This document shows, in pieces, positions 10,913 through 12,458 of a stretch of 64,000 nt of DNA. This DNA is from Escherichia coli. Lineage in GTDB: Bacteria; Pseudomonadota; Gammaproteobacteria; Enterobacterales; Enterobacteriaceae. A program made the position numbers and the translations under genes. A model generated the notes under the pieces. The model was not told the DNA's origin, did not search any database, and saw only the letters and a list, made by a program, of their open reading frames with translations. The stretch lies in assembly GCF_048403405.1 (NCBI RefSeq), contig NZ_CP183129.1; one strand, 5' to 3'. Numbering within the stretch: position 1 is the stretch's first letter; each line of letters starts with the position of its first letter.

Positions 10913-10951
10913 GTGGGTGTTGTGTTTAGGGGCGGGGTAAGACTACGGGTC

Positions 10952-10973
10952 AGGGCAAGATTACGAAAGCCCG
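10952..10973. repeat. Copy A of a 22-bp direct repeat (H-rpt 3'-terminus-like)
   Basis: agggcaagattacgaaagcccg; 21 of 22 identical to 11328..11349. Confidence 0.6.
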
Positions 10974-11006
10974 GAGCCTGTCCATCATTCTGTGTAAATG
11001 CCTTTC

Positions 11007-11255
11007 TCAGAAGTGACCGTCAAGGCGGTCACCGAACTCGATAATAAAGCGACTCATCCCTATCCGCCAGTCCTGAAGTGGCATCGTCCATTTTTGCGAC
11101 GCTGACTGGAAAGCCAGCCACACCACTTTTTTCACCGACTCATCTGTCGGGAACACTTTCCGTTTCTTTATCGCATGTGTGATGATGCTATTCAGCGATT
11201 CGATTGCGTTAGTGGTGTAGATAACCTTGCGGATCGCCTCCGGGTACACGAAGAA
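11007..11255 (-). mobile_element. IS256-family (mutator-type) transposase, C-terminal fragment only
   Basis: 80 aa ORF ...YPEAIRKVIYTTNAIESLNSIITHAIKKRKVFPTDESVKK...RFIIEFGDRL matches the conserved C-terminus of IS256-family transposases; no upstream catalytic region. Confidence 0.7.
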
Positions 11256-11327
11256 TGTGGCAACATTCGGCCAGTTTGCCCGCCAGCTGCGACTTATCTG
11301 CGGGTACCGTGCATCCCATTCCTTCCC

Positions 11328-11349
11328 AGGGAAAGATTACGAAAGCCCG
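11328..11349. repeat. Copy B of the 22-bp direct repeat, overlapping the 3' end of the H-rpt transposase gene
   Basis: agggaaagattacgaaagcccg. Confidence 0.6.
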
Positions 11350-12458
11350 CTCCCCGCAAGGACTGACGCCAGATAGTTTCTGTCCATGGCTGCTTTTCGC
11401 ATCTTACGTCTTAACCCTGCCTTGAATACCTTATCATTCGTCAAAATATTAATAGCGATGTGCCGTATCCCTGAAAATAATTCTGCTGCGTTTCCTCTTC
11501 TTATTTTGCAGTCGTCTTCATTCATTACCACGTCCAGACGCCAGTGCAGCTTATTCTCCACGTGCCAGTGGTTTCGGATTGCTGTGGCGAACTTCTCTGC
11601 GGTTAAATCAGCAGAACTAATATAATATCTGACCGTCATTTCTGGCTCTTTCTTTTGTTCTGCTATTATTGACCGAAAGGAGACTGCCACGCATAATTTC
11701 TTCAGACCTTTCCATTCAAACGTGAAATCAATAAGTTCATCAGGGACATCGCAAACAATGTGAAGACGGATTTCTTCTCTGCCGTGACTCTTTTCACTCA
11801 TTGCGTAACTGTCATGCTCTGGATTATTTAATTCTTTCAGCGGAAATTTTTCCTCGAAGGCTTTATTTAGCCGCCCCTGGTTTCCTTTTACAGCGAATAA
11901 ATAATCACCTCCCTGTTTTTGTATCTTCTCTGCAATATCTTTCTGGCAACCCATCGCATCAGTTGTGATGATTTTTCCTTTAATATCCAGCATGTTAAGA
12001 AGTTCTGGGATAGCTGTAATTTCATTGGATTTCTCATCCGTCCTGATCTGTCCGATGACCAGACTGTGCATTGTTGAGAACGCACTAATGACATGAATCG
12101 CTCCCTTGCGGCGACTCTTGTCATAAGAATGCCGGAGTGTTTTTCCATCAATTGCGATGACGTCTTTATCATCTGAAGTATGGCAATCTCGCATCCAGTT
12201 AATAAAGCACTCGTGAAATTTTGCAGGACTGATACAGGATACAACTCTGGCGATGGTATCGTGAACAGGAATACCATTTTCAAAATCACCGTATTGTTTT
12301 AAAAAATCGAGATGTGTTTCCCCAAAATCCTCTATATCTTCCCAACCTTCCGCACCCGAAATAACGGCACAAATAGTCAACAGTAGAATATCCGATAATT
12401 TATGTTCCACTTTCCAGGCTTGTCTGTAATCGGGGATAATAGAAATATGCCCCATCAA
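11337..12458 (-). mobile_element. ISAs1-family transposase (Rhs-associated H-repeat protein)
   Basis: 373 aa ORF ...[43 protein letters not shown]... typical H-rpt; the position of the canonical upstream ATG reads ATA here, so initiation is probably at TTG 12458 or ATG 12455. Confidence 0.85.

Follow-up and report, generated by a model that had tools for sequence, protein, structure and literature searches.

The yafV edge of a T6SS/Rhs island in Escherichia coli raises the question of how a remnant of an IS256-family transposase came to lie between two near-identical direct repeats, beside an H-rpt transposase gene whose first codon reads ATA. We studied this locus in a stretch of 64,000 nucleotides of E. 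coli DNA, hereafter the window, in which fadE-ivy-yafV is followed by the scar and then by an immunity gene, Rhs, VgrG and the T6SS cluster. The block beside the scar lies on the minus strand and comprises the immunity-like gene, the Rhs gene, vgrG, hcp and the full T6SS cluster, with yafT and tRNA-Asp at its far end, while yafV is the conserved chromosomal gene at the island edge. The 125-aa gene that adjoins the Rhs gene is presumably its immunity gene, a role assigned from position alone. K-12 is without the T6SS/Rhs island and keeps only ykfM, yafU and the 189-bp pseudogene yafF between yafT and yafV. Where the aspV-yafT...yafV T6SS/Rhs island meets yafV, the region is very probably a layered scar of insertion sequences without function, in which tips of successive H-rpts remain. 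The coordinates of its features are collected in Table 1.

Table 1. Features of the scar and of its surroundings (positions of the window)
Feature	Position	Strand	Description or basis
yafV (2-oxoglutaramate amidase)	10142..10912	+	RefSeq annotation of a near-identical genome; Pfam CN_hydrolase
Putative older H-rpt tip allele, 13-bp relic GGGTAAGACTACG	10935..10947	.	sequence match to tips beside yafV elsewhere
Repeat 1, lone 23-bp H-rpt right-end tip CAGGGCAAGATTACGAAAGCCCG	10951..10973	.	severed by the IS256-like element
3' fragment of an IS256-family element	10974..11327	-	positions 1-354 of ~1293; alignment with full-length relatives
Terminal inverted repeat of the fragment	~10974-11003		
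Transposase stop of the fragment	11007-11009		
Last 106 transposase codons of the fragment	11010-11327		
Repeat 2	11327..11349		outermost 23 bp of the inverted repeat at the right end of the complete 1291-bp H-rpt
Complete H-rpt / ISEc1 (ISAs1 family), 1291 bp	11327..12617	-	terminal inverted repeats 11327-11351 and 12593-12617
H-rpt transposase frame, 378 codons	11337..12473	-	first codon ATA (12473-12471); RefSeq CDS WP_024192499.1
In-frame alternative start ATG (codon 7)	12455-12453	-	
In-frame alternative start TTG (codon 6)	12458-12456	-	
Shine-Dalgarno AAGGAG	12485-12480	-	6-nt spacing to ATA (ideal), kept
Inverted repeat, 17 nt, 94% complementary	12642..12689	.	repeat search
Immunity-like gene, 125 aa	12694..13071	-	directly downstream of the Rhs gene; weak DUF7674 match
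Rhs core protein gene, 1500 aa	13071..17573	-	downstream of vgrG in the T6SS cluster

Members of the ISAs1 family measure about 1.2-1.5 kb, and target-site duplications of 8-10 bp have been reported for them. The complete H-rpt of the window has the same 1291 bp as K-12 yhhI (H-rptB) and ydcC (H-rptE), with 96% nucleotide identity to the K-12 copies over its full length and inverted repeats of the CAGGG type; its two arms, 25 nt each and 80% complementary, both begin CAGGGAAAGAT. It also shares with yhhI and ydcC the 378-codon DDE transposase, starting at element position 145, and a location immediately after the paired Rhs C-terminal tip and immunity gene. The window copy differs from them in having ATA for ATG, 12 private substitutions and the tip CAGGGAAAG for CAGGGCAAG, and its right tip abuts the IS256-family fragment instead of chromosomal DNA. 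The transposase matches NCBIfam transpos_ISAs1 (E=2.7e-125, 417.7 bits, cut-off 70) and the Pfam domains DDE_Tnp_1_assoc and DDE_Tnp_1, and RefSeq names it 'ISAs1-like element ISEc1 family transposase'. Apart from the start codon its frame is intact, and 7 residues, mostly conservative, differ from YhhI.

The same element appears in an ISfinder-based table for the ST38 strain 28Eco12, where ISEc1 is given at 4160599..4161889, exactly the window coordinates of the complete H-rpt, and where the IS256 fragment is not listed (PMC6963479). In the window no target-site duplication was found at the H-rpt, since its flanks TTCCTTCC and CACTTCAC differ; these same non-matching flanks are recorded for 28Eco12, which holds further full-length ISEc1 copies, none of them with matching flanks, i.e. 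with a target-site duplication (PMC6963479). Because no ISEc1 copy in 28Eco12 has such a duplication, simple insertion events are not demonstrable.

On the yafV side of the complete element lies the IS256-family piece. Its full-length relatives are 1293-1314 bp long, with 30-nt terminal repeats GAGCCTGT.../...ACAGGCTC, and over the 354 bp that are present the fragment is 95-96% identical to them, terminal repeat included, with no indel and no internal stop. These relatives are unnamed copies on the plasmids pECC-1470_10 and p1-H9 and on the LHM10-1 chromosome; IS1414, the nearest named relative, is 82-83% identical. As in the IS256-family elements of E. coli, the transposase C-terminus is of the Mutator type, with the YTTNAIESLN motif (Pfam Transposase_mut, positions 299-377 of 379, E=1.6e-18), but the window keeps only the last 27%, with one terminus and no target-site duplication. 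The NCBIfam transpos_IS256 score of 71 bits lies under the whole-protein cut-off of 150 because 106 aa alone remain. In RefSeq, 11007-11318 is a partial transposase pseudogene with the sole label 'IS256 family transposase'. A preliminary description of the locus had recognised an IS256 3' fragment and placed it at 11007..11255; the family assignment stands, and the extent has to be corrected to 10974-11327.

Both borders of this fragment are sharp. In an alignment of the window with four other element copies from unrelated contexts (two plasmids and two chromosomal sites), the five unrelated flanks part immediately to the left of GAGCCTGT, which begins exactly at 10974 and abuts repeat 1. At the other side, homology to the IS256-like element ends after ...CCTTCCC at 11327, where the tip of the complete H-rpt starts. 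Thus one terminus, from 10974 onward, is present with its 354 bp, and the second terminus is absent from the window. The preliminary description had proposed that an insertion sequence entered an H-rpt end and later decayed there. Its insertion step is supported by the terminal repeat that starts at 10974 just after a 23-bp tip; simple decay is not supported, as the fragment ends in a clean break at its position 354, made by the complete H-rpt with its tip intact.

The repeats that bracket the fragment are real. Repeat 1 at 10952-10973 (AGGGCAAGATTACGAAAGCCCG) and repeat 2 at 11328-11349 (AGGGAAAGATTACGAAAGCCCG) are identical at 21 of 22 positions, as first described, and in a repeat search they reached 23 bp (10951-10973 and 11327-11349, 22/23 identical), in direct orientation and 376 bp apart. 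The chance expectation of such a pair in 1.8 kb is about 1.6e-6. A fragment bracketed by direct repeats could suggest the target-site duplication of an IS256-family insertion. This reading was rejected and has next to no probability: repeat 2 adjoins an internal break at position 354 of the insertion sequence, not its other terminus, and it belongs to the inverted repeat of the complete H-rpt. Target-site duplications in the IS256 family are 8-9 bp long, not 23 bp, and none of that size was found here, as the second terminus is missing and the 23-bp repeats are H-rpt tips. That the fragment and repeats do not form one intact element, a point on which the preliminary description had made its proposal depend, is seen in the full-length copies L007 and L008, which end at GAGCCTG without such repeats.

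The repeats are the tips of successive H-rpt copies, neither a target-site duplication nor a local duplication. Repeat 2 was correctly recognised beforehand as the 3' end of the H-rpt transposase gene, whose stop codon TAA (11337-11339) lies within it. Base for base, repeat 1 equals the right tip found in K-12 yhhI and ydcC, as well as in the H-rpts of L005, L010 and L011. The two tips carry different alleles, the common CAGGGCAAG in repeat 1 and the rarer CAGGGAAAG in the resident element (repeat 2), and for this reason they look like the tips of separate H-rpt copies and not like an in-place duplication. This bears directly on the duplicated H-rpt end that had been suggested for the locus, in which slippage or illegitimate recombination, for example, would have copied the end in place, with an IS256 element between the copies and gradual decay afterwards. 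Two near-identical 23-bp tips in direct orientation, 376 bp apart and with a single base difference, are what such an event would leave. However, that sole difference is one between two natural tip alleles; one IS256 terminus is perfect and the other boundary is the tip of a complete H-rpt to the base, where decay would not halt; and the remaining 354 bp are free of indels, with an open frame. We consider an in-place duplication very unlikely.

Closer to yafV a third, shorter stretch of H-rpt sequence is found. The preliminary description had taken 10940-10975 for an internally deleted second copy of the same H-rpt terminus, which does not hold, as the stretch before repeat 1 carries what is probably a 13-bp relic of a third, older allele. 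The relic GGGTAAGACTACG is identical to positions 3-15 of the tip allele CAGGGTAAGACTACG, which lies directly against the yafV flank in ETEC4069, LHM10-1 and SMN197SH3; L008, L009 and L018 have this allele at the yafV site, as CAGGGTAAGACTACGAAAGCCCG. From this match, the 13-bp stretch appears to be a remnant of an older H-rpt tip. On this reading, three right tips of H-rpts point the same way in the window, one of 13 bp, one of 23 bp and one on the complete element, and the IS256 piece is caught between the last two. The bases GGT, which separate the relic from repeat 1, have no source in the history proposed below.

A comparison with K-12 yafF, the 'min 5' H-rpt remnant, places the scar in context. 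It is at the same chromosomal site and in the same orientation, with the H-rpt right end facing the yafV stop over the same flank of ~30 bp. In the comparison that the preliminary description suggested, K-12 yafF keeps the last 280 bp of an H-rpt (positions 1001-1280), whose degenerate tip CGGGGTATTACTACG runs straight into the yafV flank; a second tip and an IS256 fragment are both absent, and K-12 has lost the T6SS/Rhs island. A direct junction of yafV to an H-rpt tip, with no IS256 piece, is also found in ETEC4069, SMN197SH3 and 19KM1831. When the uninterrupted junction was rebuilt as a query, it was covered to at least 80% in 3229 of 5426 complete E. coli genomes, about 289 of these being window-like. 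The direct junction is the simpler state and is found in most E. coli. In L010 and L011 an additional spacer or orphan gene lies ahead of the H-rpt.

The scar region itself, 1711 bp, is 100% identical in many complete genomes and is covered to at least 80% in about 289 of the 5426; 28Eco12 is among the carriers. No intermediate was found among these genomes, and the order of events is for this reason inferred. Constructed queries for the exact uninterrupted repeat-1 junction, for repeat 1 followed by a full IS256-like element, and for the reciprocal junction, in which the H-rpt left end would run into IS256 sequence from position 355 onward (from 345 in the query), found none of these in the 5426 complete E. 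coli genomes. What they returned instead were independent configurations (L008, L010, L011, L017 and L019).

In LHM10-1 and at least four other genomes, a full-length but frameshifted IS256-like element sits in the same orientation 40 bp inside the H-rpt tip, with non-H-rpt DNA beyond it; as the distance is 40 bp and not 23 bp, this is an independent event. At another Rhs locus (L005) an H-rpt tip cuts the IS256-like element at position 481, and in an O-antigen cluster (L017 and at least 12 other genomes) it does so at position 504. At K-12 RhsC (the ybfQ copy, ybfL and ybfD), three tandem H-rpts truncate one another, and complete tips abut a truncated H-rpt in direct orientation, as here. This arrangement shows that the landing of one H-rpt end in, or next to, another has happened repeatedly. 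Its truncated partners are long (381 and ~890 bp) and have trapped no foreign insertion sequence, whereas in the window only the 13- and 23-bp tips remain, with the IS256 fragment between two tips. Taken with L005, L017 and LHM10-1, the RhsC case shows that nesting of these elements is recurrent; each time, the interrupted element has kept one side only.

The most likely history would have five steps. First, an H-rpt would have stood beside yafV, the arrangement seen in K-12, ETEC4069 and most E. coli. A further H-rpt copy may then have landed in or against the resident tip, the pair collapsing to one and leaving the 13-bp relic. An IS256-like element would next have inserted 23 bp inside the right end of the newer copy, and a complete H-rpt end may have been joined to IS256-like position 354 through H-rpt transposition. 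Finally, the IS256-like element would have lost its 5' two-thirds, and whatever remained of the earlier H-rpt would have gone too, most likely by homologous recombination between directly repeated H-rpts; adjacent deletion would give the same product.

For this last loss, recombination and H-rpt-mediated adjacent deletion are both routes that the data fit. In its full form, the second route would start from tandem H-rpts beside yafV, with the IS256-like element inserting 23 bp inside the outer copy; the right end of the intact inner H-rpt would then transpose intramolecularly into IS256-like position 354 and delete the intervening DNA at once. Tandem H-rpts do exist, both at the yafV locus itself (L010) and at K-12 RhsC, and in all three of the H-rpt/IS256-like junctions one side only of the IS256-like element survives. 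Adjacent deletion would also be expected to leave ISEc1 copies such as those of 28Eco12, with no target-site duplications (PMC6963479). The window and ETEC4069 have the left-end junction ATTAAAGTTAGGGTGAAGTG|CAGGG in common. It is thus an old junction that predates the one at the right end, as this route would have it. However, a tandem intermediate with an IS256-like element was not found among the 5426 genomes, and the resident H-rpt differs from its ETEC4069 counterpart, which has this left-end junction too, at 40 of 1291 positions (3.1%), more than would be expected of an old resident copy. Moreover, the transposition chemistry of ISAs1-family elements is, to our knowledge, uncharacterised. 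We regard this full form of adjacent deletion as possible but rather doubtful. Counts of mismatches per 100 bp against seven other copies revealed no clear recombination mosaic in the H-rpt, with the differences evenly spread; its left 300 bp are nearest to ETEC4069 in these counts, a weak signal.

The second question concerns the start codon of the H-rpt transposase. The K-12 genes yhhI and ydcC are annotated from an ATG at element position 145 (ATG GAA CTT AAA AAA TTG ATG), and their alignment confirms the site at which the preliminary description, with MELKKLM as the start of the K-12 proteins, had read ATA: the window has ATA GAA CTT at 12473-12465 on the minus strand. The TTG and ATG mentioned there as possible starts are indeed in frame downstream, at 12458 and 12455. 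All 11 other H-rpt 5' ends sampled read AAGGAGAACAAA-ATG-GAACTT, with ATA in the window copy alone. Of the 5426 complete E. coli genomes, 244 contain the exact 81-mer with ATA. Its ATG counterpart is present in full length in only four, at or near the ydcC locus; ATA is therefore a derived, lineage-specific G-to-A transition. The allele is almost co-extensive with the scar. RefSeq annotates the 378-aa protein WP_024192499.1 from the ATA, a start that was set by homology and not by experiment.

Initiation at AUA was measured at 1-2% of AUG on one reporter and at 0.02-3% on others (bioRxiv 10.1101/063800). In the window the Shine-Dalgarno sequence faces the ATA, while TTG and ATG lie 21 and 24 nt from it and have no purine-rich tract of their own; transposase synthesis is therefore probably lowered, and we predict that it probably runs at a few percent or less. 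The change from ATG to ATA looks like an early step towards a pseudogene and not like a designed feature.

A different interpretation may be that ATA is a working, selected weak start that holds the transposase very low in this lineage without disabling it. Such starts have precedents, as the AUU starts of infC and pcnB hold those proteins low. The ideal 6-nt spacing between Shine-Dalgarno and ATA is kept, the 378-codon frame is open whereas several other H-rpt copies carry stops, the RefSeq CDS runs from the ATA, and the allele is fixed in the 244 genomes. On the private branch of this copy there are 9 synonymous changes against 2 conservative replacements. Constraint therefore acted on the transposase until recently, and the ATA copy may even now be in use. 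Yet the constraint may be older than the ATA mutation, the annotated start rests on homology, and fixation within one clonal group and at one locus can be hitch-hiking. In addition, other full-length ISEc1 copies in the same genomes leave no evident need for this one (PMC6963479). A selected weak start is thus unlikely, and an early pseudogene step accounts better for the ATA.

Both elements are already annotated in RefSeq. The locus shows a nested insertion-sequence scar of an ordinary kind, plus a mutated start codon in a single clonal allele of a well-known element, and the scar is of little importance on its own. A full-text literature search on H-rpt, Rhs and ISAs1 found no description of it. 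Its analysis explains an odd pair of direct repeats as the tips of insertion-sequence copies that followed one another, revises the limits of a pseudogene and flags the annotation of WP_024192499.1 from a non-canonical ATA on homology alone. The scar also provides a dated marker, carried by 244-289 of the 5426 complete genomes, the ST38 strain included, and one more data point for H-rpt ends as sites of rearrangement at Rhs loci.

A broader idea takes the scar as one of several records of ISEc1 transposition in E. coli in the evolutionarily recent past, and also holds that ISEc1 and the IS256-family element may preferentially land in each other. ISEc1 is usually regarded as an inert Rhs accessory, and we know of no experimental demonstration of H-rpt transposition in E. 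coli to date. The landing sites are mutual: at yafV, IS256-like tips are found 23 and 40 bp into the H-rpt right end, and three unrelated loci have H-rpt tips that interrupt the IS256 sequence at positions 354, 481 and 504. Reciprocal targeting would resemble that of IS4321 and IS5075, which target the terminal repeats of Tn21-family transposons. We hold this idea to be improbable at present. If it were true, H-rpt tips would be break points for the exchange of Rhs C-terminal tip and immunity modules, and would offer a handle on how these modules are shuffled. Across the H-rpt left tip, the window and ETEC4069 agree without a difference for 1382 bp on the outer side and diverge by 3.1% from ~39 bp inside it.

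Around the scar, promoter and terminator counts were similar to those of shuffled controls, with no regulatory signal, and no Rfam match to a structured RNA was obtained in 9000-14000 at E<=1. The 17-nt inverted repeat of Table 1 lies close to the H-rpt left end, on its outer side, and directly follows the immunity-like gene; it is probably the terminator hairpin of that gene and part of neither insertion sequence.

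The DNA just outside the left tip of the H-rpt element is identical between the window and E. coli ETEC4069 over the first 1382 bp (0 mismatches), a stretch that spans intergenic DNA, the immunity-like gene and the C-terminal tip of the Rhs gene. Within H-rpt the same two sequences differ at 40 of 1291 bp, with the first mismatch 39 bp from the left tip, and on the yafV side at 57 of 2936 bp. Divergence between the window and ETEC4069 thus jumps sharply at the H-rpt left tip. Judging from these sequence comparisons, the Rhs tip and the immunity gene seem to have been exchanged recently as one module, with the boundary of the exchange at or just inside the end of H-rpt.

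The same module was found at another Rhs locus. E. coli LD91-1 carries a near-identical immunity-like gene (WP_001077737.1) together with a near-identical Rhs tip at the RhsE/ydcC locus, beside pptA. An H-rpt again neighbours the module there, the two being separated by some 250 additional bp. This distribution indicates that the Rhs tip/immunity module moves from one Rhs locus to another.

Coordinates of the features compared in the window and in other E. coli genomes
Feature	Source	Coordinates	Strand
Region compared outside the H-rpt left tip	window	12618-14480	
Region compared outside the H-rpt left tip	ETEC4069 (L009)	4395-6257	
H-rpt compared	window	11327-12617	
Rhs gene	window	13071-17573	
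Immunity-like gene	LD91-1 (L020)	4043-4420	
Yet another yafV/H-rpt junction	19KM1831 (L019)	~3590-3620	
H-rpt left tip and IS256-like part, O-antigen gene cluster	D3 (L017)	2392-4726	
H-rpt left tip and IS256-like remnant, another Rhs locus	22AR0750 (L005)	3001-4795	
Frame across the H-rpt/IS256-like join	window	11325-11339	minus
Position matching hicA/hicB of CFSAN061763	window	~2893-3520	

On the opposite side of H-rpt, a further distinct junction with yafV was found in E. coli 19KM1831, in which the H-rpt tip CTGGGCAAGATTACG is directly joined to ...GGGCCGGGGG; this junction lacks 4 bp relative to the ETEC4069 type. From the junctions aligned here, the yafV/H-rpt boundary has been remade several times within E. 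coli.

H-rpt tips also cut the IS256-like element elsewhere. In E. coli D3 the left tip directly adjoins the part of the element from position 504 to 1293, beyond which lies a fragment whose annotation is retron-type reverse transcriptase; at least 12 further genomes share this type of junction. In E. coli 22AR0750 the left tip, which reads TAGGG and not CAGGG, lies in the opposite relative orientation to the IS256-like element, and the remnant keeps positions 1-481 with a 20-bp insertion. No intact IS256-like copy was found among the longer E. coli copies examined (L004, L006, L007 and L008), each of them being defective by a frameshift, an internal stop or a truncation. At the join in the window, the TAA stop of the H-rpt transposase and what remains of the IS256 transposase share one reading frame (...GLS* SFP GKEWDARY...); such a shared frame would arise by coincidence in one case out of three and suggests no function.

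Across the T6SS region the window is 99.3% identical to strain CFSAN061763 (NZ_CP042899.1), so it comes from a strain that is related to, but distinct from, CFSAN061763. The Rhs gene is an intact frame of 1500 codons in the window, but the CFSAN061763 annotation marks it as frameshifted. The annotation of CFSAN061763 (L016) also places a hicA/hicB toxin-antitoxin pair between a flhA-like fragment (lfhA) and yafL, a position where K-12 carries rayT instead; the window departs from CFSAN061763 near there, so the pair is at most a candidate in the window.
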